From: Minisyncoccia bacterium
Lineage (GTDB): Bacteria; Patescibacteriota; Minisyncoccia; Phycocordibacterales; UBA918
NCBI GenBank assembly: GCA_046598345.1
Contig: JBKJIT010000004.1
Span: 265,226-329,225 of the forward strand
Reading direction: 5' to 3'
DNA length: 64,000 nucleotides
Shown here: positions 13,599-48,506 of the stretch, one piece after another
How the letters are laid out: the number at the start of each line of letters is the position of its first letter
Position numbering within the stretch: the stretch's first letter is position 1
Program-made: the position numbers and the translations under genes
Notes under the pieces: generated by a model
The model's input: only the letters and a program-made list of their open reading frames with translations
Databases searched by the model: none
What the model was told of the DNA's origin: nothing

Positions 13599-13666
13599 TG
13601 TTGGACGGTGTGCGTCCAAAATCAATTGTGAATAGGATTTTATGACGGACTTGGAAAATATAGTCA
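13599..13666. promoter_or_regulatory. ~67-bp promoter-like repeat element (copy A), 32-100 nt upstream of cohesin gene 12473-13567
   Basis: gttggacggtgtgcgtccaaaatcaattgtgaataggattttatgacggacttggaaaatatagtca. Its reverse complement reads TTGACT-N19-TAAAAT. Near-identical to 15476-15542. Confidence 0.45.
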
Positions 13667-13901: not shown

Positions 13902-15047
13902 CTAGAACATCGGTGTTGCTATGTAGCGAAGTGTCGTCGTATAGTCGTCACCCGCTTCTTGCAATGCCGAGATTTGGACCTGGTAACCAATTCGTGCCCT
14001 ACCAAAACCGTTAGTAGTGCCGTCAGCTGGCCCCGTGTGACCCATAATCACAATCGGTGTTGTACTGCCAGATGCCCACTCGTTTGCATCGAATTCATCG
14101 ATACCAGCACGTGAGGTTGTTGCATCTTCTGAGGTGATCCCCCAGTGGCCGTATGTTGCCGTATCAGTGATGACCGCGCCTGGCGCCTGCCACGCTGTTG
14201 GCGTGTAGGTGTTTGCTCCATCGATGAATCCATCAATAGTTGCTCCAGTCGTTGACTGCAATGCACCGGTTTGCTCAACAGTTACGCTGTAGCCGTTTGA
14301 GGCATTTGTCGTAACTGAAAGGTCCTGTGCAAGCGTTTTCGATACGTTAATGTTTAGCGTTCCAAATGGAAGCGAGACACTCGTACTCGTTGCAGATGTT
14401 GTTGTAGGACTGCTGTTCACACTTGAACTTGCAGCCACTCCTGATACGGTAAACGTAAGAGAAGTATCAACACTTGCTGTCATGGTCACTTGATCAATGA
14501 TTGCTACACGAATTTGTCCGTCATCCGGTGACGTACCGTCTATATCAATTGGATACGAGGTCGTTGCCGAAGGATTCACAATCTGTGTATTACCTGCACC
14601 ACCAGCTGCTGCATGACTACCAATCTCAATTGAGAATGGGGTACTCGATGCCTGGCCGACGTTACTGGGTGAAGTGAAAGTGATCGTTTGACTCGATGTA
14701 CTTACACCCCAAATTCCAGATCCGTTTGTAGGAGCAATTGTTTGCTCTGTACCAGATGCAGTGAGATCAAAATCTTCAACACCAAGTGCTGGGATTGTGA
14801 ACTGTGCTGGGAAGGTAATAGTGATTGTTTGACCTGCAGTCATACCATTTGGCGATGTAAACGCGACGGTATGATTGGATGCTACGCTAGGCGCAGAATT
14901 GGACAAGGTATCGCTTGCGCTTGTGATTGATGACGCTTCCGCAGTGCGGAAGATTGTTGGAAGTCCAGTAGTCCAAAGGAACACTGCAAGTCCAACTATC
15001 ATCGCGACAGCCTGGAGAGTTCGCACGGTCGTTGCCGTGTGAATCAT
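13902..15047 (-). CDS. surface protein carrying C-terminal module 'A' (…TLRYIATPMF), the small paralog of the 2091-aa giant's C-terminus
   Basis: 381-aa ORF with N-terminal signal-anchor (AVAMIVGLAVFLWTTGLP). C-terminal ~150 aa align with the giant 1170-7367 C-terminus (SLPFGTLNINVS ~ SIPFGSLPVNSD; QEAGDDYTTTLRYIATPMF ~ QEAGSYGTSIRYIIVPIF). Confidence 0.75.
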   Translation of the reverse strand: MIHTATTVRTLQAVAMIVGLAVFLWTTGLPTIFRTAEASSITSASDTLSNSAPSVASNHTVAFTSPNGMTAGQTITITFPAQFTIPALGVEDFDLTASGTEQTIAPTNGSGIWGVSTSSQTITFTSPSNVGQASSTPFSIEIGSHAAAGGAGNTQIVNPSATTSYPIDIDGTSPDDGQIRVAIIDQVTMTASVDTSLTFTVSGVAASSSVNSSPTTTSATSTSVSLPFGTLNINVSKTLAQDLSVTTNASNGYSVTVEQTGALQSTTGATIDGFIDGANTYTPTAWQAPGAVITDTATYGHWGITSEDATTSRAGIDEFDANEWASGSTTPIVIMGHTGPADGTTNGFGRARIGYQVQISALQEAGDDYTTTLRYIATPMF

Positions 15048-15475: not shown

Positions 15476-15542
15476 GTTGGACGGTGTGCGTCACATAATC
15501 CATTTTGAATAGGATTTAGTAACGGACTCAGAAATTATTTTG
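15476..15542. promoter_or_regulatory. ~67-bp repeat element (copy B) in the long 15048-15585 intergenic region
   Basis: gttggacggtgtgcgtcacataatccattttgaataggatttagtaacggactcagaaattattttg. Additional copies of the 21-bp core ACGGRCTYNGRAAWTATAGTC occur at 13735-13763 and 15424-15451. Confidence 0.45.
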
Positions 15543-15585: not shown

Positions 15586-16713
15586 TCAACCGGTCCAGTT
15601 GAAGAGAAGGATCGAAAAGTCTTCCAGTCCTACTTTTGCATTTTGATTTATGTCCGCAGGTGGATTAGAGTTGCCGCCAGGTGTACCCCACCAAAAGATA
15701 AGGATTGAGAAGTCAATAAGATTTACCTTTCCGTCACGATTGAGATCAGAATTACTTACTGCTTTCCCTTCTACTCCCACGAAGAGTGAAATTGCAGTGC
15801 CATACGTGCTTTCTGTTTTCAACGCGCCTGTACCTGTGATGAAACGTGCCTTTGCAGTATGTGTGTCGATTGATACTTCTCCCGTATCAAAAGCAACACT
15901 CCAATTACCAGAAGTGTCGGAGGTCGCTGTAAGTATTTTACGATTATTATCAATTGAAACTTCGACTGGCACACTTGGTACCGTTTGACCCGAAAGCGTA
16001 ATGGTGTCCCCCGGGTTTGGAGAGGCATTTGAAGCGCGAATCGTTGGCGGAATTAAAATCCCATTTACACTTGTTACTGCACCCTGCGTGACATCAAATG
16101 TTGTGTTGAAGGTAGCAGAACGTGTTCCCTGCGAATCATTTGCCCAGAAACTAAACGATGCTGCACCTGGTTCTGCATCAGTATTAAATAAAAACTCTCC
16201 TTTACTATTCGTACGCACACTTCCTATTGAATCGCCGTCCATAAGTATATTCACAGTTGCATTCGGATATGCCTTTCCTTGCAGAGTGACCTGCGTGTCA
16301 CCAAGAGCCTCGTTACTTCCACCTGAAGCAGAACTACCTCCACCTCCAGAGCTTCCGCCACCAGCATCTGCACGCTCTTCAGTACAGTCAGCAGCACAAA
16401 AGTCATCATCCTCATTGTTCCCATCATCACACTCTTCAGCATAAATTGTTTGCAAAACAGCATCTCCGCAATAGGGAGCCCAACGGCACACATCCGTACA
16501 CTGTCTCCCTAAAATTGTCGTGCTGTATGCACCCGTATCAGTTGGGACGTCGCAATCTTCTCCTGAGTTAACAATAACGTCTCCACAGATACTAATGAGA
16601 AGACTCGTGGTCGCAATCAGAGTCTGCCCATGCACAACACCAGCAAAGAAAAAAGGGAGACACAGTAAAACAAAAAAGTAACTTTTCATGAGATTACGAG
16701 TATTCAAAGCCAT
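15586..16713 (-). CDS. secreted dockerin-domain protein with N-terminal Myxococcus-type cysteine-rich repeat, Gly/Ser linker and Ig-like domains
   Basis: Signal peptide. 'CGDVIVNSGEDCD…CGDAVLQTIYAEECDDGNNEDDDFCAADC' matches the CxxGxGxxxxGEECDDGN cysteine-rich repeat. C-terminal double dockerin (DLNRDGKVNLIDFSILIFWWG…DINQNAKVGLEDFSILLFNWTG). Paralogous C-terminus to 46486-48339. Confidence 0.75.
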   Translation of the reverse strand: MALNTRNLMKSYFFVLLCLPFFFAGVVHGQTLIATTSLLISICGDVIVNSGEDCDVPTDTGAYSTTILGRQCTDVCRWAPYCGDAVLQTIYAEECDDGNNEDDDFCAADCTEERADAGGGSSGGGGSSASGGSNEALGDTQVTLQGKAYPNATVNILMDGDSIGSVRTNSKGEFLFNTDAEPGAASFSFWANDSQGTRSATFNTTFDVTQGAVTSVNGILIPPTIRASNASPNPGDTITLSGQTVPSVPVEVSIDNNRKILTATSDTSGNWSVAFDTGEVSIDTHTAKARFITGTGALKTESTYGTAISLFVGVEGKAVSNSDLNRDGKVNLIDFSILIFWWGTPGGNSNPPADINQNAKVGLEDFSILLFNWTG

Positions 16714-16716
16714 ACA

Positions 16717-17685
16717 CTACGCTCGTCTCTTTCGAGAACGGACGGTGCGCACAATCACATAACCGAGAAGGCTTGCAAAGAAAAGAATTGGAATTATTAA
16801 AGAAAGCTTGTGTGGCAGAGAGAGTCCCGTGAAGCCAAAGCCTGCAGTTTGCAATGTGCCGTACGGCAAAATACTTACATTAACTTCCCCACTCAGTTTT
16901 ACTTCCTCGTCATTTTTAATTTCGAAACGTGCTAGGTAACTTCCAGATGGAAGCCTCGTTGGAAGTTCTGCAAAGACAGTTTCAGTTTTAAAGGGATTTA
17001 CAGTAGCAATCTTTCCTTTTTTGTGGGTTTCTTCGAGAAGCACTTTTCCGGATGCGTCATAAATTCTAAATACCACGTCACTTGGTGCTACGGGGATATT
17101 ACCCAAATTTTCAAGAAGCATTTCGAATCGGATCCTTCCTGGGAAATAAAGCCATCCTACTTTATGTCCTTCATTCAAATCAGAGATCCCAATTTTTCGT
17201 ACCTTGAAATCTTTAATTTCTTTATCAATAACACTAAGCTTTACATCTATCTGAGCGCCTAATGAAATATTTACTGCACCACCTGCAACCTGATCATCAG
17301 GAGTTCCTGTCTTTATACGAATGTTTCCAGTGTAGTCTCTAAAATCAGCCTTATCAGGAACCTGAACTCTCACTGTCATGGGAACTTTCTGAGCGCCCTG
17401 AGGAAGTAAAAATTCATTTCCCTCTACAATAGTAAACCAATCATTGACTTCAGGAACATCAATACTAATAGTTGCTTTGAGAGCAGTTGTCGGATCACTT
17501 CGTACTAAATAAATAATTTGCTCATACTGGGAGTTTCTAGTAAGGCTGGAATTTGTAACATAGGGAGGTGTAATACCGAAGCCAGCAAAAACTGTGTGCG
17601 CAAGGGAAAAGAGCGCTACAAATGTTAAAAAAAGAGAGCTAAGAAATCTCATTATATAAACCGACCACCAAAATAATGGCGACAA
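16717..17685 (-). CDS. DUF916/DUF3324-like (Csc/DufA-like) cell-surface protein, paralog of 143-1186
   Basis: 322-aa ORF. Signal (…LFSLAHTVFA|GFG), two beta-sandwich domains, C-terminal TM (IIPILFFASLLGYVIV) followed by RTVRSRKRRA. Same architecture as 143-1186. Lies immediately downstream of the module-B protein 17764-19590. Confidence 0.6.
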   Translation of the reverse strand: MSPLFWWSVYIMRFLSSLFLTFVALFSLAHTVFAGFGITPPYVTNSSLTRNSQYEQIIYLVRSDPTTALKATISIDVPEVNDWFTIVEGNEFLLPQGAQKVPMTVRVQVPDKADFRDYTGNIRIKTGTPDDQVAGGAVNISLGAQIDVKLSVIDKEIKDFKVRKIGISDLNEGHKVGWLYFPGRIRFEMLLENLGNIPVAPSDVVFRIYDASGKVLLEETHKKGKIATVNPFKTETVFAELPTRLPSGSYLARFEIKNDEEVKLSGEVNVSILPYGTLQTAGFGFTGLSLPHKLSLIIPILFFASLLGYVIVRTVRSRKRRA

Positions 17686-17717
17686 TTAATTATCAAACGG
17701 TTAAGCCATAAACGCAA

Positions 17718-17743
17718 GAACCACCGTAGGATAACGGTGGTTC
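17718..17743. terminator. 10-bp stem / 6-nt loop hairpin (GAACCACCGT aggata ACGGTGGTTC) 20 nt downstream of gene 17764-19590
   Basis: Perfect palindrome. On the minus-strand transcript it is followed by UUGCGUUUAUGGCUUAA. Confidence 0.45.
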
Positions 17744-17763
17744 AGAACATAGATTTTAACTAA

Positions 17764-19590
17764 CTACCAATTTGCGGATTCACCAACAATTGCTGTAAAG
17801 GTATTCTCACCTGTGTAGTCACCTGCAAAGGTAATCGTGCCTGGAACTCGGATTCCCCAATACGCATTGTTTGTTGCCTGTGAGGAAGTTGCAGTTGACT
17901 TCGGAACATTGATTTCAATTTCCTGTGGGGTGGTAGATGAAAGTGCAGTTCCCTGAGCATAGGTTACTGTACTAGTAGCAAAGACCTGTTCAGATTCTGG
18001 AATGGTGGAGGTAGACAAACTCGGACAAAGAGTAGAGCCAGTATATGTTGTACACATTGACTCACCAGTTACATCCTTATCAAGCCCGACGTTCCCAGTG
18101 GCAGCAATCGTAGTGGTTGCAGTAATTGGATCCATTTGCTGACCCGGTTCGAGTGATCCATATGGAATTGATAGTGTATTGAGCGCGAAAGCAAGGAAAC
18201 TAGTTACTTCAACTCCGATTGAGCCCTCTGCCAAGCTTCCTGTGGCAGAATTATCATCCACTGCTCGGACCTGTGCAAGCCAGTTTTGTGTTGGATACTG
18301 CGTGGTTGTTGCTGTACCGTCAGTTGGATCTGCAATGTACCAAAGCGGGAATGTACAATTCCACATTTTGTCAGTATCTGATGCACCCGTGCATGATGTT
18401 GTTGATGCTGTGCATGAAATGTTCCAAGTTGTCGTTGGTACACTACTGACATAACAATTGTTTGCATTGTACGAACTTGTAGGAGTACATGTTGAGGAGC
18501 TAACGCCGGATCGATACAAGCTGAGCTGATAACTTACTACCTCACTCGAGGATGCTGCATTGATGCAACTATTATTATCTGCGGCTGTAAACTGCAGAGT
18601 AAAGCCAGTTGTCTGCCCTGCTTCAGTCGTAAGTATGATATCAGTACCTCCATTAATTGAGATCGTTGAACTAGCAACAGATGGTGCAACGTTACTTACA
18701 GTGAGAACTGAGTCAGTGCCTTGCGATCCACCTGAAGCTTCAAATCCATGGTTGTCTATAACATAGCCGAACGCGCCGTAGTTTTGATCTTGAGTTGGAA
18801 TAACAATGGTATATGTCGCAGTTGCGTTTGCAGCAACAGTTATAGTTGTGCTTCCAAGCAGCGTACCAGTACAAGAATCAGTAGATGTACTAAATCCTGC
18901 TGTTGCACACACAATCAGTTTTACCCTATCAGCTGTACCAGAAGTGTCTGAATCTGAAGATGTGCTGTTAAAAATAACTAGCTGGCCAGGATCAGCGGGT
19001 GAATTGTCAGTGAAAATAGTAAATGTTGGTCGATGATTTACTTCAAATGGTGAGGAGTTAGTGGCGTTTGTTCCTTGCGTTGAAATAGTGTTACAACGTG
19101 GAGTTCCCGCGTTTCCGTCACAGATAAATGCAAACCAAGGGTTTGATTCAGCCCAACTGGCATTTGTAGTCGTTGCTGAAACTGCCGCTACACCGCTTGT
19201 TGTTGAAGCAGAAACTGCCCATTGCGTACCGCCACCACATGCGGGTGCAGCACCAGAGTTTGGTGTTGGAGAAGCATTTGTGCTGCAAATAAGAAGATAA
19301 TATCGCTCCCCGTTTGAATCAGTACCAATAGCCGTCCAAGAAACTACATCCCCCGCATTCGTAGGATTTGTTGCAGATGATTCAACAACTTCTGTGGTAG
19401 TGGCTGTCCATAGGGGAGGTGTGTTGAGAACTGTAACTGAAGTAGTAGCCTGACTTTGAGCGTCTACTTGAAGGAGTTCTTGGGAGCCAAGATTAAAAAC
19501 GAATGCAATCGCAAATACGAAAACCCCGATGATCGTGGTGTACACAGTGATTTTACCTGCCGTACGTAAATTATCTGTGTTATAAGACAT
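17764..19590 (-). CDS. N-terminally anchored Thr/Ser-rich surface protein carrying C-terminal module 'B' (…YWGIRVP…), the small paralog of the 5587-aa giant's C-terminus
   Basis: 608-aa ORF with TM anchor (ITVYTTIIGVFVFAIAFVF). C-terminal ~250 aa align with giant 27418-44181 (YRSGV…NNCY…ADPTD…; SIPYGSLEP ~ TIGYGALEV; YWGIRVPG ~ YWGIAIPSG). Confidence 0.75.
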   Translation of the reverse strand: MSYNTDNLRTAGKITVYTTIIGVFVFAIAFVFNLGSQELLQVDAQSQATTSVTVLNTPPLWTATTTEVVESSATNPTNAGDVVSWTAIGTDSNGERYYLLICSTNASPTPNSGAAPACGGGTQWAVSASTTSGVAAVSATTTNASWAESNPWFAFICDGNAGTPRCNTISTQGTNATNSSPFEVNHRPTFTIFTDNSPADPGQLVIFNSTSSDSDTSGTADRVKLIVCATAGFSTSTDSCTGTLLGSTTITVAANATATYTIVIPTQDQNYGAFGYVIDNHGFEASGGSQGTDSVLTVSNVAPSVASSTISINGGTDIILTTEAGQTTGFTLQFTAADNNSCINAASSSEVVSYQLSLYRSGVSSSTCTPTSSYNANNCYVSSVPTTTWNISCTASTTSCTGASDTDKMWNCTFPLWYIADPTDGTATTTQYPTQNWLAQVRAVDDNSATGSLAEGSIGVEVTSFLAFALNTLSIPYGSLEPGQQMDPITATTTIAATGNVGLDKDVTGESMCTTYTGSTLCPSLSTSTIPESEQVFATSTVTYAQGTALSSTTPQEIEINVPKSTATSSQATNNAYWGIRVPGTITFAGDYTGENTFTAIVGESANW

Positions 19591-19662
19591 GGATTACTTA
19601 TGAACTTGTTTCATTAATTGTACCTAATCCACAGCCTAATATCAGTGAGTTATACACAGGCG

Positions 19663-20877
19663 TTATTCATAGCGAATTGCATCGAGTGGGTTGAGTAACG
19701 AAGCACGACGTGCAGGAAATATTCCCGTCAGATACCCAACTCCACCTGAGAAGAGAGCGATAAATGTGAGGAATCCAAGTGGGAACGCGAAGAGGCCTAC
19801 AGACTGCCCTCCGAATTGACTTGCCGCAAGATTGAGGAGTAAATTCACAACCCATCCCAAGGTTACCCCCATGACTATCCCACTCACTCCCCCCAGGAAA
19901 CCCACAATGATAGATTCTGAAACAAATAAGAACTTAATGTCTCGAGGAGAGGCTCCAATAGTGCGCATAATCCCAATTTCCTTCGTTCGCTCAAGAAGAG
20001 TCACCGTCATCGTATTAAACATACCGATCGCAGACACAAGGAGCGCAATACCACCAAATGTTGCCAGCACTGCCTGAACTCCCTCGAAAATCTTAGAGGC
20101 CTGCTCCACCGTCTTGGAAAGTGCAGTCACACGGTATCCCGCCTTAATAAGGCTTTCTTCAATGAGTGGAAGAAACTCACTGGACACCACTTTAACCTGA
20201 GCGCGATCATAGACTTCAATTCCCACATAGTTTTTAAGCTCAGGGAGCATCATGAGCGCATTAAGAACCCCCTCCTCCTTGGTTACTCCTTTTACCTTGT
20301 ATTGCTTTGCAATATTAATTTCAGTAATTGCATCGGTACCATCATTTGCCGGAATAAGGAGACGGAACGAAACCTCCTGTCCGATGAAATTGTTGATTTG
20401 ATCATCCGCGATACCGAAAAGCTTGAGTACCGCGGGTGAAATCATCACTTCGTTCGTATTGCCAATATCTTCATCCTTAAATACATCTCCCGCTGAGGTG
20501 GTAATACCTGCATACCGAAGGTATGCAGGTTCAGCGCCTTGAAGAAAGATGTTTCCTGTAAGCCCTTTATAAGTAATGAGCGCAGGAAAACGTGCGAGGG
20601 GCGCTGCATCCTCAATATTGGGATCTTTTTCAAACTCCCCGATTATGTCGTCATCAATAACAATGTTCTTCCCTCCAGTAGCGGAAACACCCAAGGAAAG
20701 GAGGCTGTCCCCGAAAACGATCTGTTCGAGAATAATCTGCTGTAGTCCAAAGCCAAGTCCCACAAGGACCACAACCGCACCCGTACCAACACCCATACCC
20801 AAAATTGTAAGCCACGTACGAAGTGGATTTGTCTTAAACATACGCGTCGAAAGACGCGCAAGATCAACTACTTGCAT
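19663..20877 (-). CDS. ABC transporter permease, FtsX/MacB family
   Basis: 404-aa ORF with TM1, a large extracytoplasmic domain, and three C-terminal TMs of FtsX type (…GASPRDIKFLFVSESIIVGFLGG…). Its start codon lies inside the repeated 'ACTTGCAT…CTATATAGTAAA' cassette. Confidence 0.8.
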   Translation of the reverse strand: MQVVDLARLSTRMFKTNPLRTWLTILGMGVGTGAVVVLVGLGFGLQQIILEQIVFGDSLLSLGVSATGGKNIVIDDDIIGEFEKDPNIEDAAPLARFPALITYKGLTGNIFLQGAEPAYLRYAGITTSAGDVFKDEDIGNTNEVMISPAVLKLFGIADDQINNFIGQEVSFRLLIPANDGTDAITEINIAKQYKVKGVTKEEGVLNALMMLPELKNYVGIEVYDRAQVKVVSSEFLPLIEESLIKAGYRVTALSKTVEQASKIFEGVQAVLATFGGIALLVSAIGMFNTMTVTLLERTKEIGIMRTIGASPRDIKFLFVSESIIVGFLGGVSGIVMGVTLGWVVNLLLNLAASQFGGQSVGLFAFPLGFLTFIALFSGGVGYLTGIFPARRASLLNPLDAIRYE

Positions 20878-20932
20878 ACTCTATATAGTAAACTACCCTC
20901 TCCTCATAACCCATACGTTCTCCACTGATTCC
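20867..20932. promoter_or_regulatory. copy 1 of a repeated start-site cassette (gatcaaCTACTTGCATACTCTATATAGTAAACTACC…TTCTCCACTGATTCC) containing the ATG of the ABC permease
   Basis: Direct repeat of 21702-21735 and 22641-22715. Includes the 8-bp palindrome CTATATAG. The ATG of gene 19663-20877 and its first codons (MQVVD) lie inside the element. Confidence 0.6.
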
Positions 20933-21059
20933 TAGATTCACTACCTAAGTAGATCCGGTTCATTAGCAAGCTCGGCATGCACATGTGTGTGCATAGAGTT
21001 GTATCCGAAGGACTTACTATTGATTATTTAGTCGTATAGAGTTACATTCGGTCTACCCT

Positions 21060-21689
21060 ATGGAAAAGATTCCTCTTTATAAGGCAAAGCGTATATTCGA
21101 TATAGTTTTTTCCCTTTCAATACTCATCATCCTTTCCCCTGTCATCCTATTTTTCTTATTTGGAATTATTCTCGAGCACATCATACGATTGCGGCCTTTC
21201 GATCCACTCTTCTATAGTGAAATCCGCTATTCCCAAGGGGAACCGTTTACACTCTATAAATTCAATATCTTTAAGCAAGAGGTAATAGAGGAAATGCGTT
21301 CACAAGGAGCATTTATTCATACAAAACAACTTGAACGAGAAGGTTCAACTCTGTGTATAGGCTGGATTCTCAAGCAGATATACCTTGATGAACTTCCACA
21401 ATTTTTTAATATTCTGAGAGGTGATATGACTGTAGTCGGTCCAAGACCAGTAAACTACGAGGTCTATCAGAAACTTCTTGGACTGGGAATTACGGACAAA
21501 GCAAAAGTGAAGTCTGGTCTCACGGGAAACTACCAGTCCTATAAAAATACAGCAGGTAAAAAATCTGAAGACATGGATAGAGAGTATGTCGAATACTATC
21601 GTACACACCCGTGGCCTAAGGTGCTTCTCTTTGATTTAAAAATAATTTTACGCACGCTTAAAGTCTTATTCCTTGCACGAGGGATTTAG
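21060..21689 (+). CDS. bacterial sugar transferase (small phosphoglycosyltransferase, PglC/WbaP C-terminal-domain type)
   Basis: 209-aa ORF with N-terminal TM (IVFSLSILIILSPVILFFLFGIIL). 'DELPQFFNILRGDMTVVGPRP' matches the PF02397 signature (DELPQLxNVLxGDMSLVGPRP). Confidence 0.85.
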   Translation: MEKIPLYKAKRIFDIVFSLSILIILSPVILFFLFGIILEHIIRLRPFDPLFYSEIRYSQGEPFTLYKFNIFKQEVIEEMRSQGAFIHTKQLEREGSTLCIGWILKQIYLDELPQFFNILRGDMTVVGPRPVNYEVYQKLLGLGITDKAKVKSGLTGNYQSYKNTAGKKSEDMDREYVEYYRTHPWPKVLLFDLKIILRTLKVLFLARGI

Positions 21690-21701
21690 TTACACTTGGA
21701 T

Positions 21702-21735
21702 CAACGACTTGCATCCTCTATATAGTAAAAATAAG
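21702..21735. repeat. copy 2 (shortest) of the start-site cassette, in the convergent 3' intergenic space between the sugar transferase and protease genes
   Basis: 'caacgACTTGCATCCTCTATATAGTAAAAATAAG'. It would encode MQVVDPSVTKSLVQGIRL* on the minus strand but has no downstream gene, so it is probably a remnant. Confidence 0.5.
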
Positions 21736-21745
21736 TAGCGAGTGA

Positions 21746-22615
21746 TTACATCGATTGATCAATCCCCCAGTTTGCTTGATCTCCTTCGAGTAACTTAAGC
21801 GCTGCGTTAATAGGTACCGCAAAATTCAAGTTCTGAACTCCTATAGCATTATCTTCATACTCAAACGTCCATGCAGGTATTCCGATGAGTTCACCTCGAT
21901 CGTTTAATAGTGCTCCACCACTATTCCCTGAAGAAATAGGATTGGTGATTTGTAATTCTTGACGCGACTCAAATGTGCGAATTCCACTAATATTACCCAG
22001 AGATAGAGTGTGCAGGTAGCCCTCAGGATGACCGATGACGAGTACTTTGTCCCCAATCTGGATCGAATCTGAATTTCCTATTGGTATAGGTTGGAGCTTC
22101 GTCGCATCAATCTTAATAAAGGCAACATCCATACCCTCATCAGCAGCAAGAACTGCGGTAACGGGATAGTGAGTGCCATCAGATGTTGTTACGACCGCTT
22201 TCACTTTGTCATGTGCAACATGATCGTTCGTAAGAATAACCCCATCCTCAGTTAAGATCGAGCCGCTCGCGATATAGACGAAACCCAATTCATCTTCTGT
22301 CGTTATGTACACGACGCTTTTTGAATTCTTATTGTAATTAGCAATATCAGCCATTGCTTCTGGCTCGTCTGCACGAACAAGTGATGGACGTTTCGTTACT
22401 CGCCTGTTTTCATATAGCGACAAAAGGTCGGGATTGAGTGTTTCAAGTATCTCGCTTATTTCCGTGTCCAAGGTAATGACAGTATCCGGACGGAGTTCCT
22501 CATACGTTCCAAAAGGAAGATAATACTGCACCCAGGGCCAGGCAAGCCAAACAAACATGAGTACAACAAGCCCATCAATTATTCTCCTCCACCACGTAGT
22601 ACACTTTGCACTCAT
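21746..22615 (-). CDS. membrane-anchored trypsin-like serine protease (S1/HtrA-like catalytic domain, no obvious PDZ)
   Basis: 289-aa ORF with N-terminal TM (LVVLMFVWLAWPWV). Catalytic His (…LTNDHVAHD), Asp (…AADEGMDVAFIKID) and Ser in GNSGGAL. Confidence 0.8.
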   Translation of the reverse strand: MSAKCTTWWRRIIDGLVVLMFVWLAWPWVQYYLPFGTYEELRPDTVITLDTEISEILETLNPDLLSLYENRRVTKRPSLVRADEPEAMADIANYNKNSKSVVYITTEDELGFVYIASGSILTEDGVILTNDHVAHDKVKAVVTTSDGTHYPVTAVLAADEGMDVAFIKIDATKLQPIPIGNSDSIQIGDKVLVIGHPEGYLHTLSLGNISGIRTFESRQELQITNPISSGNSGGALLNDRGELIGIPAWTFEYEDNAIGVQNLNFAVPINAALKLLEGDQANWGIDQSM

Positions 22616-22656
22616 ACAGACAGAATTGGTGTGTGCCCAAGATCAGCGACTTGCAT
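22612..22656 (-). CDS. putative 14-codon leader ORF (MQVADLGHTPILSV) translationally coupled (ATGA overlap) to the S1 protease
   Basis: Lies within copy 3 of the cassette. Reading the minus strand: ATG CAA GTC GCT GAT CTT GGG CAC ACA CCA ATT CTG TCT GTA TGA, where the TGA overlaps the protease ATG (GTATGAGTG). Confidence 0.35.
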   Translation of the reverse strand: MQVADLGHTPILSV

Positions 22657-22715
22657 ATTCTATATAGTAAACTACCGAGTTCAACAAACTCTTACTTTCT
22701 CCACTGGTTCAATCT
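22641..22715. promoter_or_regulatory. copy 3 of the start-site cassette, upstream of the S1 protease
   Basis: 'gatcagCGACTTGCATATTCTATATAGTAAACTACCgagttcaacaaactcTTACTTTCTCCACTGGTTCaatc'. About 80% identical to copy 1 over ~75 bp. Confidence 0.6.
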
Positions 22716-22726
22716 GTTAAATGCAA

Positions 22727-23875
22727 TTAAATAAACCGGAAACTTGAGATAACTCTGTTAAGTATGGCGTCCTCAGTCACGTCAACACCTTTAGAAGGAA
22801 CGATAGATATGAGATACATGACTCCATTATTGATAGTGCAAAAATTAGTAAAACGAGTAGTGTTGTTCGTGGCATCGTATTTTGTGAAGCTTATGCCATT
22901 CAATAATATCTGAGTAAATGGGGTAGACCGTCCTGCAATTTCACGAGAACAATTTAGTGTCCCCTCTGTCAGTGCGTTAATCACAAATGAACCAGGTGCG
23001 TATTGCTTCCCATCCATTGGTCTGAAGCGTATGGCAGTATCGTTAGGCCCATTCTCATAATCACCTAAATTCGTTACACCTGGAGGATACTCCACGTGAA
23101 ATCCATACTGAGTATTAGTATAAGTATTCCAACCATCATCAGTTTTTTCAATAACAGCAGATGGCGTTGGGACAGTAATTTTTGTTGGCCAAACGATATT
23201 TGTCTCACTTGCGCCTACAACCTTCTCGTCAAAGGTGATGTTTGTTATCGAATCCAGGCGAAATATGTAATTCTCGGTCACTACATACCCACTACACCTC
23301 TCCCCTTCGGCACTACATATCCAAAAGGCAGGCCTCCCATCAATTTCGGTTGTTCTAATTTCACTAGTATATTCGTAAATTAACTTCTGTAACAATTCCA
23401 ATATTTTTATTTTTTGAGTATTGGTATATACAAAAATACTTGGCTTCCATTTCTCTTCAAGTGAAAAAACAGCTACGTCTTGTGTTTTATCAACCCACCC
23501 ACGTGATGCAAAATCATCTTGAGTTAATTGCTTCACTTGCAAACTGGGCGAATGTTGGAATGCAAACCCATATTCCTTATTTTCGTACAAAACCCAGTCA
23601 GTCTTATCTTTATCTAAATCATATGTATACGAACCATGAGCCGGGAGACCTTCTTGAATTTGAATATATTTTATTTCTGTTAACTGAGGTGGCTTTTTAA
23701 CCTCAATTATTCTTTGAACCGCAACAACCTTTTCGGGTGCATGGTTGTAACCTATAAGCCCACCAATAAATGGCATAAGAATAAATAATACCAGTGCCAG
23801 ATATTTTGAAAGCGGAGTAATAACAAATAAAGGGCTTTTTGGCTTTGCCTCTAATATTAGATTTTCTTGTTCCAT
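22727..23875 (-). CDS. hypothetical membrane-anchored extracytoplasmic protein
   Basis: ORF 22727-24013. The internal Met (MEQENL…, 23875) precedes the single TM (YLALVLFILMPFIGGLIGY). The remaining ~330 aa have no recognisable family. Confidence 0.5.
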   Translation of the reverse strand: MEQENLILEAKPKSPLFVITPLSKYLALVLFILMPFIGGLIGYNHAPEKVVAVQRIIEVKKPPQLTEIKYIQIQEGLPAHGSYTYDLDKDKTDWVLYENKEYGFAFQHSPSLQVKQLTQDDFASRGWVDKTQDVAVFSLEEKWKPSIFVYTNTQKIKILELLQKLIYEYTSEIRTTEIDGRPAFWICSAEGERCSGYVVTENYIFRLDSITNITFDEKVVGASETNIVWPTKITVPTPSAVIEKTDDGWNTYTNTQYGFHVEYPPGVTNLGDYENGPNDTAIRFRPMDGKQYAPGSFVINALTEGTLNCSREIAGRSTPFTQILLNGISFTKYDATNNTTRFTNFCTINNGVMYLISIVPSKGVDVTEDAILNRVISSFRFI

Positions 23876-24053
23876 GACTAAATCATAGCATGCGAGTTTA
23901 GAACCATCTGCAGTTGCGCGCACGTAGAAGTCACTAAACATGCAAATCTTGAGAAAAGTTCGAGGCGCAAGTTCTTTTGTGCATGAGCCGTACCCATGTA
24001 CGGTGAAAAGCAAAAGGACGCAGCGACAAAGAAATTTTCCAAGATTTCAAGGT

Positions 24054-25376
24054 TTAGGCTTTGTAGCTGACGTCAACGCCAAGTGCAATCAACTTCTCCA
24101 TATACCTCGCCACCTCATCGGCAATCTTTTCCTTAAGTGATAGTCCTCCCTCTTTAATATCTTCCTGAAGTCGCGCGTGGAAATCTACTTCTCCATTTAT
24201 CCCTGAGAGTCTGTCAGCAATTATCCCGGTGAGATTCTCACGCGTAAGTTTTGTAAGTTTTATATCATGAGTAAGTAGAAGGTACTCCCGAACACGCTCT
24301 GCAAACTTATGCTGTTCAAAAAATGCAGCGTCTGAATCATTATCACTTCGGAAGCGTCGCACGTCATCTGCCTGCTTCACGATCTGGACTGAAACATCAG
24401 CCATTTTTAGCGCAGTTTCCTTATCGATGCCTGCTCCCCCCTCATCATACCTTTTAACGAGCGCATCAATAAATAGTTTCTTATGAATTTTTCCCTGAAT
24501 GAGAAGATTGACCGCCTTTTCAAGACGACTGAGTTGGCTATACGAGTATTTCTGGGTTAGAAAATTGGTGAGACTACGGACCCGCAGCATATCAACAGAG
24601 TCGTATGGAAAAAGGCGAGCAAGCTGCTCAAGCTCCGTCACGATAGTTTCCCCTTCCATAACAGGCTTAATTTGTTTTCTCTGGGGATTTACCACCTCGC
24701 GAACAATAAATCCGTCTTTCAAATAATACACGCGATGTGCGTAAGAAAGGTGTGCGGCATTATGGGACACCATAATAATAGTGCGTTGATCAAACGTATT
24801 AATCTCGTCAATTTTGTCCATCACTTGCTGTGTAGAGACGGAGTCGAGGTTCCCTGTTGGTTCATCAGCCAATAGAATCTGTGGGTCATTCACCATAGAA
24901 CGTGCAACGGATACACGTTGCTGTTGACCTCCCGAGAGCATCGAGGGAATCTTATGAGAAACATGACCTACCCCGAACCGTTCAAGAAGCATTTGCGCAC
25001 GGCGTTCACGCGTTGCCTTATTCGCGTCACAAAAGATCATAGGAAGTGCTACATTATCGAGAACAGAAAGCGAGCCAATTAGGTTGAATGACTGGAAGAT
25101 AATTCCCATGATGTACCGTTGGAAATAGACACGCTCCTGGGGTGGATATGAGTAAATATCGTCACCACGAATAAGGAGAGTGCCGCCGCCAGGAGGTAGG
25201 GAGCCTTGGATTGCATACATCAGAGTCGATTTTCCTGAACCAGAACTGCCGAAGAGAATGATGTACTCCCCTTCGTAGATGTCCGTGTTTACATTCTGAA
25301 GTGCCTTGTACTCATTTGACTTCCCTTTGTTGTAGGTGATATCCAAATTTCTGCAAACTATCAAAGGCTTAGCCAT
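24054..25376 (-). CDS. ABC transporter ATP-binding protein (MacB/LolD-like NBD) with an unusual ~220-aa C-terminal extension
   Basis: Walker A GSSGSGKST, signature LSGGQQQRVSVAR, Walker B ILLADEPTGNLD, H-loop VSHN. Probable start MAKPLIV… (25376); the ORF is open to 25457. The C-terminal extension (VVNPQRKQ…VSYKA) is predicted helical and of unknown function. Confidence 0.8.
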   Translation of the reverse strand: MAKPLIVCRNLDITYNKGKSNEYKALQNVNTDIYEGEYIILFGSSGSGKSTLMYAIQGSLPPGGGTLLIRGDDIYSYPPQERVYFQRYIMGIIFQSFNLIGSLSVLDNVALPMIFCDANKATRERRAQMLLERFGVGHVSHKIPSMLSGGQQQRVSVARSMVNDPQILLADEPTGNLDSVSTQQVMDKIDEINTFDQRTIIMVSHNAAHLSYAHRVYYLKDGFIVREVVNPQRKQIKPVMEGETIVTELEQLARLFPYDSVDMLRVRSLTNFLTQKYSYSQLSRLEKAVNLLIQGKIHKKLFIDALVKRYDEGGAGIDKETALKMADVSVQIVKQADDVRRFRSDNDSDAAFFEQHKFAERVREYLLLTHDIKLTKLTRENLTGIIADRLSGINGEVDFHARLQEDIKEGGLSLKEKIADEVARYMEKLIALGVDVSYKA

Positions 25377-25589
25377 GGTACAAACATCTTTGGCGTATTT
25401 TTTCGTTGCTCGCTCGTTTGCTCCACGCACTGTAGGTTGACTACAGCTTGGTCGCAAGCCTCACGAGCGCCTTAAAATACACTCAAAGACTGATTGTCCT
25501 ATTGTATACTAATGATTCTCTATTTTTCATAATTCTCCACGTTGTTCAAGTAGATGTACACAATATCGTAAGCGTGTGGCGAGGAGCCG

Positions 25590-25672
25590 TCAGATACAAG
25601 GCGCTGAGCCGCGATGACACGAGGCGTACAGGGCGTACGGTGAGTGTCATCGCGGTGAGAGCAACGCCGTAG
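25590..25672. ncRNA. structured intergenic element D1 (nested hairpins), a repeat of 27319-27394
   Basis: ccGCGATGACAC-[gagg CGTAC aggg c GTACG gtga]-GTGTCATCGCgg. 12-bp outer stem and 5-bp inner stem. Conserved flanks gatacaaggcRctgagcc … agYaacgccgtagat. Confidence 0.4.
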
Positions 25673-25693
25673 ATGGCGGCTCCCCGCTGCACG

Positions 25694-27241
25694 TTAACCG
25701 CTGATGTTCTTAACCCATCCGAACGTCGACTCAAAGTTCTCAATAATGATATCAATAATGTTCTTTTCCTGAATAGGAGTAAAGAGCACAAAGTTTTCTG
25801 AATCGGCTTTATTCCCCGACTCGTCCTTACACGAAAGCCAGAATTGATACACAGTTGCTGGCGCAAACTCGACAATTACCTCCACGTGCTGTTCGCTGTA
25901 ACTTATATCTTTTGACTCTACTATTGTTGGATCAACTCCACCTACGATACCTTCACGGTACATCATGGTACAGAATGATGGCTCATCGGTGCTCCACTCC
26001 ACAATCGTCTGAATACGCGATTCGCCACCTGGGAAGAGCGTTGATTCGTTCGTGACATTTGAAATGATTGGCGGTTCGGTGTCTTTAACGGTAATAAAGG
26101 TAACCGGACTCGACTTTACTCGATCTCCACCGGCATTTTCCGCAATGACAAAGGCGACGTACCGAGTACCCAACGTAAGATCAGCAATACGCATTTGATG
26201 GGTAGATGCCAAAGTAGGACGACCTACAGAGTTCTGGATACCTGTTGTGAGATCCTGATATTCAATCGTTGCTTTTGCGGGTACTGTGGTATCCCATGCC
26301 AAGGTGGCAGAGTTCTCTTCTACTTTCACAATGCGCAGATTTCGAATCTCAGGAAGTGATGCTTTCGTGCGGAATGTATAGTCGAAGCTTTCTCCCAAAA
26401 TACCGATGGAATCCTTCGATCGAACCTTAAAGTGGTACTCAGTATATGGCTCTAGACCAATGAGACGAATTGAATGACTCTTCGTGTCACCATCAGTACT
26501 TGCCTGGGAGAACTCATACTGCCCTTCGACGTACGAATCTGCAGGACTAAACACCACTTCAGAGCTTGACTCACGATTGGTAGTCCAGCTTACGATTGCG
26601 CTTGTCGTTTCAACTTCAACAGTAGGAGGACCCACGATCGTAAGGTCTTCAGTAATACCCTGAATGGCTTTCACTGTTTCATTTAAAATCTCCTGCAGAG
26701 TTTCTGGAGACTGTATCTGCTTAATTTGCTCTATTACTTCTTCGGCACTCTGAGCTTCGGTTTGTGACTGTGATTCTGACTCTGATTCTGACTGTGACTC
26801 TGAGCCTTCCTGGAGCGTTTGATTTTCCTGTGTTTGTGTTTCCTTTCCTTCACCTGCCTCCGCGCCCACTTCGGGAGTTCCCTCGGTCAGCACTTTGTAG
26901 TTTGCAGAAATTCCCTGGTTGCCATCAAGGTCTGAAGACACTACGCGGAAGTAGTACGTGCGACCAGGTTCAAGGCCGTCGAGCGTAATTGAGTGTTCAG
27001 TTTTGTCGACTGCTGGTACACGCACAATGCCGTAGTCTTCCTGAAGACCGTAGTTAACTAAGGAATCAGCATCCTCGTCAGTCTCCCACGTCACCGTGAC
27101 ACTACTCTCATCGACAGTCGTAATCTGAACATTTGTAATATCTGGTGGTTCAGTGTCGGCCCCATGCACACTAGGAAGCTCCTGCACATATGAAACAAGT
27201 ACAAAAAGCGTCAGCGCTGTCGTTGCTAGCGAACGTAACAT
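25694..27241 (-). CDS. secreted protein with four fibronectin type III domains and an acidic SESE/SQSQ linker
   Basis: Signal peptide (…LPSVHG|ADTEPP). FN3 signatures (…TWETDE…YYFRVVSSDLDGN…; …VSWTTNRES…YHFKVRSKD…). Confidence 0.75.
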   Translation of the reverse strand: MLRSLATTALTLFVLVSYVQELPSVHGADTEPPDITNVQITTVDESSVTVTWETDEDADSLVNYGLQEDYGIVRVPAVDKTEHSITLDGLEPGRTYYFRVVSSDLDGNQGISANYKVLTEGTPEVGAEAGEGKETQTQENQTLQEGSESQSESESESQSQTEAQSAEEVIEQIKQIQSPETLQEILNETVKAIQGITEDLTIVGPPTVEVETTSAIVSWTTNRESSSEVVFSPADSYVEGQYEFSQASTDGDTKSHSIRLIGLEPYTEYHFKVRSKDSIGILGESFDYTFRTKASLPEIRNLRIVKVEENSATLAWDTTVPAKATIEYQDLTTGIQNSVGRPTLASTHQMRIADLTLGTRYVAFVIAENAGGDRVKSSPVTFITVKDTEPPIISNVTNESTLFPGGESRIQTIVEWSTDEPSFCTMMYREGIVGGVDPTIVESKDISYSEQHVEVIVEFAPATVYQFWLSCKDESGNKADSENFVLFTPIQEKNIIDIIIENFESTFGWVKNISG

Positions 27242-27318
27242 GTAATTAGTGTATCACCTACATGTTTCCCTCCTTTCTTCCGTTATTAACATCAACTTGA
27301 TTGAGAATGAGAATGCCT

Positions 27319-27394
27319 GAGATACAAGGCACTGAGCCACGATGATATGAGGCGTACTCTTTGTACGATGAATGTCATCGTGGCGAAAGTAACG
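27319..27394. ncRNA. structured intergenic element D2, a repeat of D1 with compensatory substitutions
   Basis: ccACGATGATAT-[gagg CGTAC tcttt GTACG atga]-ATGTCATCGTgg. Relative to D1 the outer stem shows two compensatory double changes (g→a with c→t; c→t with g→a) and one G·U wobble. The inner stem is conserved. Confidence 0.4.
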
Positions 27395-27417
27395 CCGTAG
27401 ATTAGGCATTATCACTC

Positions 27418-30400
27418 TCAATCACCGATGGCGTAGAAGATGTTCGTTCCGGTGTGTGCAACTCCAGCCACCCCCGACGGAATTGCAATACCCCAGTAGA
27501 GACGATCAGTAATGAGTGGAGTGGTGGACGTCGGTTTTGGTAGATTCAGTTCGTAGTTAACCGCTGATGTTGTGAGTTGCGTACAGTACACACAGGCACT
27601 GTATGTGAAGGTAGAGGTAGCATACTTTTCCTGTGTCGCAGGAATAACCGACGAAGCACCATCCGTGAGATCGGTACCTTGAATGGATACGTCAAGTGCA
27701 TCATTTCCAATATTTTCTACTGTCGTCGACGCATTGGTTGCACCTGTGTCACTATTCACCTCAAGAGCACCATATCCGATTGTACTATTAACGCTGATTG
27801 CGCGGAGCGTGAGGAGATCAATCGATGGTGCAGTTCCTGATGCTGTGGAGCCGCCGTCGTCACTCACACTCAGAGTTGCACGCCATGTTTCTCCCGCATA
27901 GGTACCAATGTCAGTTGGATCAGTATGATAGTAGAAATCAGCTGAGCAACTAACGTCACAAGAATTACCTGCACAATTACTAAACGTGCACTGCGCAGGT
28001 GCTGCGATATAGCAGTTGTTTGTGTTTGCGCTACATGAAGCCCCAACCCCGGAACGGTAGAACGTTGTTGTTGCAACATTAAGATCAGCATATCCGTTTT
28101 GATCAGTAACGGTACCGGTAGCAGTAATGGTTGAGGTTGCTCCGGGACTAAGGCTGATATCCATTCCAGCGTTCAATGAAAGTGACGTCACTGTTGGTAC
28201 AAAGACGAGTTCAAGCTCCGCAACACGTACGTACGAATCAATGGGACTACCACCGTCGCTTACACGGAGGCAGTAGTTTGAATCAGTTACATCAGTAGTC
28301 GAGGTGATTGCATACTCAACTTCTGTGTACTGGTTGGCGCCAACTCCAAAGCTTTGCGTGGAATTTGATGGATCCTCAATAATTTGTCCGGTAGTGAATG
28401 TTCCTGTGCCACCCAACACGTCCGTTGTCGAGGCCTGGTTCGCAAATTGGGAAGAGGAGACCATGCAGATTGGAGATCCGGTACAACTTGCCTGCACAGG
28501 TACGCTCGCATATGACGCAGAGGAAACAGATTCGCAACTTGGTGCATTACCTTTTGCTGCATACTCAAGCCGATACTGATCAGTGATAGCGAGTCCAGTG
28601 TTTTCAATGAGGAAACGCGGGCGCACGGTAGTATTTGCACTTATCCCAGAGGCCTTGGTGTTCAGCGCCGCAAACCAAGATGCACCTCCTGAGACTTGCT
28701 CGTATCCAAGTGTAGTTGTTGGTTCCGTTCCAAGAAGTGTTCTAGCAGAGTACACATCCCACGCACCGTGCTGCTCCCAGAAGGTAAAGCCGGTACCTCC
28801 AGTTGTGTAGGTGCCGTCTGTCACTGAAGTGGTAGCAACGAGTGCTCCATCTTTATAAAGGAACACTGCGATAGTGTCGTCAGTATCCCATTCAACCTCT
28901 ACCTCATACCATCCCGTTGCATACGTGAGTGTTGAGGATGCGAGCTGTGTTGTACCGGTATCACTATCGTTGTCGTACACGTCACGAGAGATCGAGATTC
29001 TATCAACACCGAACTGCTCGAGACATATACCATAGTTATCATGGAGCGTACCAGGAGACTGTACCCCAAAGAGCGTACACGTTTCGTCTCCGCTTGCTGG
29101 TGCAGATGTGTCTACGTACTTCATGAAGCGAAGCTTACTTCCCTGTGCGACCGAAGCATCAAAACGATGGATACCATGAGTGGTACGATCTCCCACCGTT
29201 ACTGCCTTTAGTCCATATGATCCCTGGTACGCAAGTGCAACACTAGTCGTGAACTTACTTGTATCATTCGCATACTCCGTGATGTTGTTATCTTCAAAAT
29301 CATCGTATGCAACAAACGTTGTGGTACCAACACCCCCGTCCGAGACTCCTCCATTTCCGTAGTACATGTAGAGTGTTGTGTTCGCGGAAGCAGTAAGTGA
29401 TGGAATTTTTACCCAGACAGTCGCTTCTGTGCTTGCGGTGTACGCGTCACGCACATAACTGAGCGTTGTTGTACCACTCGAATCCGTAAATCGAAGGTCG
29501 TCAAAGTCTGTCTGCATATCACCGTCGTATGGGATATCTACTTTCACCACCGCATTGGTATACGTCGTCGCATCCGCATTCACAACCGTGACACGCTTAC
29601 GTTTTGACCAGTTTTGGTCATACCACTCACTATTTGGTACACTCTCCCCCCCGTTATCATTTCGCCAGCGATACCCGGCCTGCTGGGTCAGGAGACACGT
29701 ACTGTCAGACCAGCGAATGGATCCGCATGCTGTAGCACCATCCACGTCGTACGCCTCACCTGCGAGATTGCCGCGGTGCGTCGTAAACGTCCACGCTGAA
29801 GGTGTGGTGCCCGTAAGTGTGATGTTTGTTCCGGAAATAGCAGTTGTGGTTGCAAAGCGCACACCAGTTATGACTTGGGATGCATTGTAGTTTACGGTCG
29901 TAGAGCTTACCGTAAGAAGTGTTCCGCCGTTTTGATCAAGTTCAAAATCTCCGTTCGACAATGAGGTAATTGTGGTATTTCCGGTGAGTGTTAGCCCATT
30001 CGGATTGAGATTCCTAAAGGCATAATTAAGTGCATTGAGCGTTCCACTATCCATTCGAATACTGTACGTACCACTTCCTTGGTTACGAACAGTCGTTGTA
30101 GCACCTGACCCTCCAAGCATATGAAGCGTGCTGCCGGTAAAGGTGGTCGTCGCGCCATTTGCAATTCGCACGGTGACTACACGTTCTGTACCTCCAAGTG
30201 CAGTCCCGTCGAAATCAGTTGCGTAGCTCCAATAATCGGTTCCCGTCGTGCGCTCATACTGACCATAGATGTTGAGCTCTCCGTTAACGGCAGCATGATC
30301 CTGTGAATACAGTGAGCTTAGGCTATCTTCCACTGTGGTGGTTGCCTGGCTATTCCATGTGCGAAGATCAGTATTATTTCCAATAAGGAGAATATTGTAA

Positions 30401-45769: not shown

Positions 45770-45785
45770 AACTCACTGTGCGTAC

Positions 45786-46247: not shown

Positions 46248-46485
46248 ACAGCTTCATTTTACGGCAAAGATGCAAAATACTCGCAAGACTTATACACAAA
46301 GTGCTTTCCTCTCGGATTTAATGAGACGAAGTTAGAACTTAGAAATACATGCGGGGGTTAGAATTTTGTGCAGAGATGCCCCAGATACGAGACGAACAAA
46401 GAAAACAATATGAAGCGTATACTCATACGATGAATATTATTTTCTGCAGTGGGGCGAAGTAGATGGGGTATATTCTGCGCAAAAA

Positions 46486-48339: not shown

Positions 48340-48506
48340 GGTTAATTCTATTGTACCGCACTGTGACTCTAGAGATGTACAGGACTGAGTATAATCGTGA
48401 GTGTATCCATCTCTTCGCCGTTTCATCATATAGACACGACATGCATGTGCATATGCACACGCAAAACAAGTAAAGCAATTGAGTAGAGAGTACTATTACT
48501 CATAAT

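Follow-up and report, generated by a model that had tools for sequence, protein, structure and literature searches.

Cases in which one promoter sequence recurs in front of unrelated genes have been described, and such sequences have been termed putative mobile promoters (Matus-Garcia, Nijveen & van Passel 2012; PMC3575422); the screen in that study took the regions from -150 to -50 and left out any pair whose coding starts were similar. Promoter capture can activate transferred genes, and in the experiments concerned capture took place by deletion or by tandem amplification with microhomology junctions (Li & Bock 2019, PMC6614815; Cit+ E. coli via PMC3575422). For mycobacteria, an enrichment of leaderless open reading frames (ORFs) of 5-50 amino acids with RTGA coupling to the following gene is on record, and leaderless initiation there requires a 5'-terminal ATG and nothing more (Shell et al. 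2015, PMC4633059). The locus described here lies in a 64-kb stretch of contig JBKJIT010000004.1 (the window, meaning the whole of the DNA analysed), and contains three direct copies of a short repeat around genes that lie between those for an ABC ATPase and its FtsX/MacB-type permease. It is proposed, with moderate confidence, that this repeat represents the native promoter-start module of ftsX in triplicate, and that its third copy has been captured by a promoterless inserted protease gene by way of a coupled mini-ORF. The case is one of promoter propagation and capture, and adds an instance to what is already known without amounting to a new kind of system. The host is an uncultivated, Kaiserbacteria-like bacterium of the Paceibacteria class within the Candidate Phyla Radiation (CPR), an assignment drawn from the labels of FtsX homologues at 78-87% identity (Kaiserbacteria, Paceibacterota or Patescibacteria).

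The 23-nt pattern ACTTGCATNNTCTATATAGTAAA is present on the plus strand of the window at three exact sites (20870, 21707 and 22649); allowing up to three mismatches adds none, and a motif search detected no further copies elsewhere in the 64 kb. As zero matches were obtained in 100 dinucleotide shuffles, none of the three copies is expected by chance. Repeat finding independently returns a 31-nt direct core at 20862-20892, 21699-21729 and 22641-22671, with the second and third copies 94% and 90% identical to copy 1, together with a longer pair formed by copies 1 and 3 (Table 1), in which 60/76 positions are identical without gaps (79%); when one gap is allowed, identity is 80.5% over 77 nt. 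An earlier note on this DNA had reported three such copies, at coordinates that prove correct to within about 10 nt. On the minus strand every copy reads TTTACTATATAGA-NN-ATGCAAGT(A/C)G(T/C)TGATC, and features a -10-like TACTAT, a 7-nt spacer and an ATG.

Similarity between copies 1 and 3 ends at +22. Of the 31 positions of the core (-16 to +16), 28-29 agree among the copies, as against 26 of 38 in the copy 1/3 flank from -54 to -17 (binomial P = 0.001-0.004); the flanks are thus down to 68% identity while the core remains at about 90%, a stricter preservation that suggests selection on promoter function, or gene conversion. Only four core sites are variable and these conflict with one another, so that the copies cannot be dated by their phylogeny. 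Beyond the core, copies 1 and 3 share a conserved block, GAAYCAGTGGAGAA, at -54 to -41, and the spacer between block and core has diverged. A candidate fourth, degenerate copy past the ATPase stop (24053-23860; ELAPRTFLKICMF compared by eye with DLARLSTRMF) was rejected, with a Smith-Waterman score of 17 against 16.4 +/- 2.3 for shuffles.

That the copies are instead a generic dispersed repeat, of the type of miniature inverted-repeat transposable elements (MITEs) or repetitive extragenic palindromes, or else an artefact of assembly, is scarcely tenable. Paceibacteria loci of this cluster are indeed rich in intergenic repeat families. However, the window has only these three copies, which fall within 1.8 kb of one another and hold genuine 5' coding sequence of ftsX. 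A scan with TTTACTATATAGNNNATGNAAGT gave nine matches in the metagenome collection and one in the viral collection, all unrelated and at chance level; the generic repeat that the earlier note had named as grounds for abandoning its proposal is therefore not what the window, metagenome and viral scans return. Repeat finding revealed no inverted-repeat arms or terminal inverted repeats at the copies, the predicted folds are no better than those of shuffled sequences for either the leader at copy 3 (z = -0.2) or the region of copy 2 (z = +0.4), and no Rfam family or tRNA was matched in the window. As for assembly, a separately assembled contig (Logan assembly, run SRR31159418) is base-for-base identical over 12.1 kb; the identity argues against a one-off assembly error, although the run may stem from the same sample as the window.

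Synteny was compared by mapping the window's proteins onto the surroundings of FtsX in 80 relatives, whose labels include Kaiserbacteria, Nomurabacteria, Lloydbacteria, Sungbacteria and Paceibacterota. All these loci preserve the cluster fn3-ATPase-FtsX-unk608-unk322-big375, and wherever both the ATPase and FtsX are present (74/74) FtsX comes after the ATPase, with a gap of at most 50 nt in 37, 51-430 nt in 32 and 0.85-3.3 kb in five. In the window, by contrast, the block from 20932 to 24053 separates the two genes, and encodes only a protein of unassigned function (unk428), an S1/HtrA-like serine protease and a sugar transferase, no homologue of which was detected in any fetched locus. In two closer metagenome contigs (L095 and L097) the annotated ATPase stands 12 and 97 nt before FtsX and homologues of the three genes are again absent. 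The nearest relative (L094, 87%) is a 1.9-kb contig in which the upstream ORF, known only by its ATPase-like C-terminus, lies 64 nt before FtsX. Because the adjacency is intact and all three genes are missing in the 74 relatives and the closer contigs, unk428, the protease and the transferase are lineage-specific insertions into an ancestral ATPase-permease pair. This agrees with the earlier note, which had suggested that the protease and transferase genes were inserted: some 77 related loci lack the intervening genes. The other finding by which the note would have been refuted, the same gene order in relatives that lack the repeats, is not seen either, the window's order being shared by none of them.

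Base composition and homology are in keeping with insertion, if unevenly. The GC contents of unk428 and the transferase are 38%, whereas the conserved ATPase, FtsX and fn3 genes have 44-47%, from which the protease (44%) is not distinguishable; its best homologue, at 54% identity, is found in unrelated contexts. The best transferase homologue (L098, 79% amino acid identity) adjoins a tRNA-like end elsewhere and keeps a terminator hairpin, and the homology of the window to that locus covers only 21035-21687. For unk428, no match was obtained in Pfam, NCBIfam, PDB sequences or viral contigs. Four-fold synonymous sites are saturated between the window and its nearest relatives (31-46% identity), and the events can therefore not be dated against them.

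The five larger gaps among the relatives (L010, L013, L072, L074 and L078) contain unrelated cargo at the same ATPase-FtsX junction, including an 861-amino-acid Gly-rich secreted protein in L010, an HD protein and, in L074, a 340-amino-acid ORF resembling a C5 cytosine methyltransferase with a 191-amino-acid HNH-like ORF, both recognised by eye only. The junction is thus a recurrent insertion site, or hot spot, for accessory genes.

The module itself is not confined to the window. The sequence TTTACTATATAGAGT-ATG is found in identical form before ftsX in L013, and close variants precede ftsX in the nearest relatives, L094 (TACTAT-AGAGTGGT-ATG), L003 (TATTAT-AGAGTTGT-ATG) and L097 (TATTAT-AGTCAT-ATG); since relatives have the same module in the same place, it predates the insertions and is taken to be the ftsX promoter of the clade. 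Relatives with a spacer between ATPase and ftsX mostly have TATAAT, CATAAT or TACTAT 6-10 nt before the ftsX ATG, examples of close spacing being TATAAT-N6 (L004), TATTAT-N6 (L097), TATAAT-N8 (L012, L072, L073) and TACTAT-N8 (L094); TGTCATAAT lies N7 to N10 before the ATG in L027, L030, L040, L042 and L063. Exceptions include L020, L022, L049 and L069, in which the -10-like hexamer is further upstream, implying a leader. In a set of 483 ATG-start ORFs drawn from the window and the 80 loci, -10 hexamers close to consensus are most frequent at a gap of 6 nt (38, versus about 5-15 at most other positions) and show lesser maxima of 19-20 at gaps of 8 and 12, and Shine-Dalgarno (SD) cores are rare, at 3-8/483 starts for each gap from 5 to 10 nt. 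Many genes of this lineage thus lack an SD sequence and have their -10 box 6-8 nt ahead of the ATG. Other genes in the window with this layout are unk428 (TATGAT-N6-ATG, behind which its start is likely the MEQEN at 23875), fn3, hsp20 and the gene at 10104-10760.

On these grounds the module is predicted to be a leaderless promoter, in which TACTAT is followed after 7 nt by transcription from the A of the ATG or within 1-2 nt of it. The earlier note had likewise named a leaderless-type start as one possibility, pointing to the missing SD sequence, and the position of the -10-like hexamer at ftsX in the relatives and at many genes of the clade supports its suggestion. A literature search on leaderless translation in CPR/Patescibacteria returned nothing specific.

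The same note had drawn attention to a perfect 8-bp palindrome, CTATATAG, which does occur in all three copies; it consists only of A and T and overlaps the -10 region. It is possible to see in the core mainly an operator, in line with the note's alternative of a dimeric-regulator site. A dimeric transcription factor would bind the palindrome, with the GAAYCAGTGGAGAA box as a possible further site, and would thereby co-regulate ftsX, the protease and an antisense transcript. The presence of the palindrome in every copy is in keeping with this, as are the second conserved block with its diverged spacer and the better preservation of the core than of the flank. Nevertheless, an operator is considered highly unlikely: promoter function alone would explain the conservation of an AT-only palindrome over the -10 region, the equivalent site in relatives reads TATAAT-AG or TACTAT-AG with no palindrome, the Pfam scans place no regulator gene next to the copies, and neither motif is found elsewhere in the window. 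Given the overlap with the -10 and the absence from the relatives' promoters, no separate role is assigned to the palindrome.

If initiation is leaderless, the promoter would be inseparable from the start codon, and every copy of it would bring along an ATG and the first codons (MQVxD). Following the insertion of unk428, the S1 protease and the sugar transferase between ATPase and permease, copy 1 would now serve as promoter and start of ftsX; its minus-strand ATG is the FtsX start, as the earlier note had it, and all homologues begin there (MQVADLAR / MRxQDLAQ). Copy 3 would have been captured in front of the protease, which would have come without the promoter of its homologues. With promoter and start codon forming one unit, copy 3 would necessarily open an ORF, here a leaderless mini-ORF of 14 codons whose UGA overlaps the protease AUG, so that terminating ribosomes would re-initiate on the protease. 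Copy 2 would be the ancestral copy left behind, or a spare, directed antisense into the transferase gene with no obvious product.

For copy 3, the leader TGA (22614-22612) overlaps the protease ATG (22615-22613) as ATGA at 22615-22612, an arrangement already read by the earlier note, and the protease start codon agrees with an alignment of 11 homologues. One protease homologue (L092) has a -10 of its own, TATAGT at 7 nt from the ATG, and in L091 TATAGT is found 11 nt upstream, whereas no -10-like hexamer is found in the 19 nt between copy 3 and the protease ATG in the window. Lacking the -10 box that its homologues possess, the protease appears to have arrived promoterless, and copy 3 probably drives it through the 14-codon mini-ORF. 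Copy 2 was correctly described as an orphan between convergent gene ends: it lies between the stops of the protease (21746) and the transferase (21689), and its 18-codon ORF is antisense to the transferase 3' end. Upstream it is flanked by CTTATTT, which is similar to the ancestral spacer before ftsX in L094, L003 and L097; weak as seven AT-rich bases are as evidence, copy 2 may be the original promoter stranded by the insertion of the transferase.

Several points weigh against this account of the three copies. Leaderless initiation and coupling are both deduced from sequence alone, and the 483 starts are drawn from orthologous clusters, which means that the counts are not independent. The register of the -10 is ambiguous, in that TACTAT, TATATA and TAGAGT/TAGAAT all fit TAnnnT, and a sigma-70-like TTGAAC-16-TAGAAT in copy 3 (22684-22657) would start transcription inside the leader ORF, bypassing it. 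Copy 2 has no evident target, yet is conserved as well as the other copies, and the far block at -54 to -41 has no explanation. Furthermore, unk428 was inserted with no copy, the order of events is not reconstructable, and the search for further copies covered only 64 kb of the genome.

A different question is how the copies arose. They might be by-products of insertion that were never selected, left either by a target duplication of 30-80 bp at the 5' end of ftsX, through a staggered break and its filling-in, or by Campbell/att-type integration of a circle that brought its own copy of the ftsX 5' end. In either route ftsX would keep its promoter and start, and this claim about origin is compatible with the present function proposed above for the copies. 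It is considered unlikely, although it has parallels. In L073, a distant relative (Lloydbacteria, FtsX 60% identical), TATAAT-N8-ATG and 13 ftsX codons are independently duplicated (57 nt, 96%; 6405-6461 / 7984-8040) on either side of a 1.5-kb block of hicB-like, hicA-like and 311-amino-acid ORFs; as the hicB gene has its own TATAAT-N6-ATG, the duplication is not needed for expression. In L091, 109 nt (91%) from the 3' end of a gene for an 830-amino-acid FtsX-type permease are duplicated (4452-4559 / 5113-5221), and in L048 a 33-nt duplication of the last codons and stop of an fn3 gene (6328-6360 / 6580-6612) surrounds an intergenic element. The repeated use of the ATPase-ftsX junction in the five relatives with cargo points in the same direction.

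The pattern of the copies themselves fits insertion by-products poorly. Nested duplications predict that copy 2 should have the flank from -54 to -17 or that from +17 to +22, and neither is present: both outer copies extend from -54 to +22, the middle copy only from -16 to +16. Three event orders of nested target-site duplication were tried and rejected, as each puts on the middle copy a flank that only the outer copies have; tandem duplication followed by deletion would be possible for copy 3, but requires two extra steps and leaves copy 2 unexplained. The contrast between flanks at 68% and core at about 90% also speaks against by-products, as does the lack of flanking ftsX-start repeats at all five other junction insertions. 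No recombinase or integrase domain was detected by Pfam in 19 ORFs of the window (143-27241 and 44243-49685; the giant ORF at 27418-44181 and the ORFs past 49698 were outside the scan), and no recombinase was detected among the called genes of L091; the ORFs of L073 were listed, not scanned.

The five duplication cases, in about 1.3 Mb and with no control set, are treated as a lead only. They suggest either an insertion process in this clade that makes long target duplications, or frequent copying of promoter and intergenic modules. It would be a bold and rather improbable extension that Paceibacteria take up accessory genes by an unrecognised process which duplicates 30-110 bp of the end of a target gene, with the target surviving and the incoming DNA gaining a promoter. 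Under such a process the duplicated 5' end would be the leaderless module and the duplicated 3' end the last codons and stop; the ftsX start would be a recurrent target (the window and L073), with L091 and L048 as the 3' cases.

The upstream copy in L073 opens a 19-codon ORF. The duplication in L091 flanks a 553-nt insert with one opposite-strand gene of 105 amino acids, and the leftover copy encodes an intact 32-amino-acid tail. The insert in L048 is made up of two tandem copies of the intergenic element, each a hairpin followed by AAGGAAAATATAGTCGCTGCGCTC, and a related element (hairpin and AAATTCRRAATAGTC...TTCAT) precedes ftsX in L029, L035, L052, L055 and L058-L060. L035 has the element in duplicate, as a 143-nt upstream region (93%) of which one copy runs up to the ATG of the ATPase gene and the other up to that of ftsX.

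The earlier note had gone on to propose that genes entered as cassettes by recombination at this element, which the three copies would bracket. The bracketing holds for the protease and the transferase, but not for the third insert, unk428 (22727-23875/24013). Recombination at the element is not borne out: there is no recombinase nearby, the transferase is in the opposite orientation, unk428 has no preceding copy, other inserts have reached the junction in five relatives in the absence of such repeats, and serial duplication of the target fails on the pattern of the flanks. Duplicated att sites and integron arrays also place direct repeats beside accessory genes and leave the target gene intact, and copies 3 and 1 do flank the protease and transferase, copy 1 rebuilding the ftsX start. 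Unlike such systems, however, the locus has no integrase (none inside the inserted block, and no integron IntI recombinase in the Pfam scan) and no attC-type inverted-repeat structure, there being no inverted-repeat arms and no significant fold at copy 2, with the transferase on the opposite strand. Its cassettes do not share one orientation, its middle copy falls short of the outer two and outside a nested pattern, and one insert lies outside the repeats. MITE and insertion sequence (IS) features, namely terminal inverted repeats and dispersed copies, are absent from the window and from the metagenome and viral scans. Membership in the integrons, the integrative elements or the MITEs thus fails in each case on at least one defining feature.

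The resemblance to putative mobile promoters is closer. A threshold of at least 80% over at least 50 nt is reached only at the borderline (79% ungapped and 80.5% gapped, over -54 to +22 instead of the published -150 to -50), and there is no paralogy between the genes downstream, which encode FtsX/MacB_PCD in one case and Trypsin_2 in the other. In both systems similar sequences (here 76-77 nt, about 80% similar) precede unrelated genes of one genome (here ftsX and the S1 protease), and there is no association with IS elements. The window differs in that the copied unit continues past the predicted transcription start and into coding sequence, reaching +22 because the promoter is of the leaderless type, in that three copies are clustered in 1.8 kb around inserts, and in its CPR host. 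As in experimental promoter capture, a gene with no usable promoter appears to have come to lie behind a copy of a resident promoter, although the cargo in the window exhibits no tandem duplication.

With respect to the mycobacterial RTGA-coupled small ORFs, the leader in the window falls within the range of 5-50 codons, its TGA overlaps the next ATG, and it is predicted to stand at the 5' end of its transcript; the sequence proxy for leaderless starts (a -10 about 6-8 nt before the ATG and no SD) is likewise seen in all three copies as TACTAT-N7-ATG. The window case is a prediction from sequence in a different phylum, and differs further in that the 5' end of the neighbouring ftsX can be recognised as the source of its small ORF.

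Current understanding is not overturned by this modest and fairly ordinary case of promoter duplication. It may nonetheless provide a readable natural example of how a genome using leaderless, SD-free initiation could wire up a newly inserted gene. A copied promoter would create a mini-ORF, from which an ATGA overlap can hand ribosomes to the new gene, and this indicates one possible source of coupled small ORFs. For CPR genomics, the ATPase-permease junction of a highly conserved surface-protein/ABC cluster is flagged as a hot spot for accessory genes, and some caution is called for in annotation, as -10 boxes abut start codons in these organisms.

Table 1. Positions of the repeat copies and of the genes and ORFs at the locus, in window coordinates
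Feature	Position	Strand	Remarks
Copy 1	20856..20931	minus	76 nt, -54 to +22 of the ftsX ATG; TACTAT 20890-20885, ATG 20877-20875
Copy 2	21699..21729	minus	31-nt core only, -16 to +16; TACTAT 21727-21722, ATG 21714-21712
Copy 3	22635..22710	minus	76 nt, 16 nt past the unk428 stop; TACTAT 22669-22664, ATG 22656-22654
FtsX/MacB-type ABC permease, 404 aa	19663..20877	minus	Pfam FtsX + MacB_PCD; homologues 86-87% identical
Bac_transf small phosphoglycosyl sugar transferase, inserted	21060..21689	plus	GC 38%
18-codon orphan ORF MQVVDPSVTKSLVQGIRL*	21658..21714	minus	opened by copy 2; antisense to transferase 3' end
Membrane-anchored S1/HtrA-like serine protease, 289 aa, inserted	21746..22615	minus	Pfam Trypsin_2; no own -10 box
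14-codon leader ORF MQVADLGHTPILSV*	22612..22656	minus	opened by copy 3; TGA overlaps protease ATG
unk428, function unassigned by family, inserted	22727..23875	minus	ORF to 24013; gene caller start 23941; GC 38%
ABC ATPase, 440 aa	24054..25376	minus	directly before ftsX in relatives

In order of transcription on the minus strand, the locus consists of a 5587-amino-acid giant protein, an fn3 protein, the ABC ATPase, unk428, copy 3, the protease, copy 2, the transferase (on the plus strand), copy 1, FtsX and three conserved surface proteins. The MacB-type ATPase/permease pair therefore sits in a cluster of fn3, Ig-like, cohesin/dockerin and giant (about 5600-amino-acid) surface proteins, both in the window (15586-27241, with the giant ORF at 27418-44181) and in L002-L081, which suggests a dedicated system for the export or assembly of surface proteins in Paceibacteria. 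The ATPase has a conserved C-terminal extension of about 200 amino acids, ending in GVDVSYK.

Three other kinds of repeat were observed in the window. A 94-nt direct repeat (79%) is found at 25581-25674 and 27309-27402, its copies starting 16-20 nt past the stops of the genes for the fn3 protein and the 5587-amino-acid giant protein. On the minus strand it forms an extended hairpin of about 110 nt (minimum free energy -66 and -47 kcal/mol, z = -6.2 and -7.7), and the copies differ by compensatory changes, CCGCGAUGACAC...GUGUCAUCGCGG versus CCACGAUGACAU...AUAUCAUCGUGG. This hairpin has no match in Rfam, and may be a terminator or stabiliser, or a member of a structured intergenic repeat family. 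Alternating GTGCAT/ATGCAC tracts (e.g. CATGTGCATATGCACAC) are present in three intergenic regions (9085-9108, 20976-20995 and 48440-48461), one of which separates copy 1 from the start of the transferase gene and another of which is a divergent promoter region; these could be an operator or a tract prone to form Z-DNA. Finally, a 63-nt intergenic direct repeat (84%) is found at 13600-13661 and 15476-15538, upstream of two consecutive minus-strand genes, at 12473-13567 and 13902-15047.

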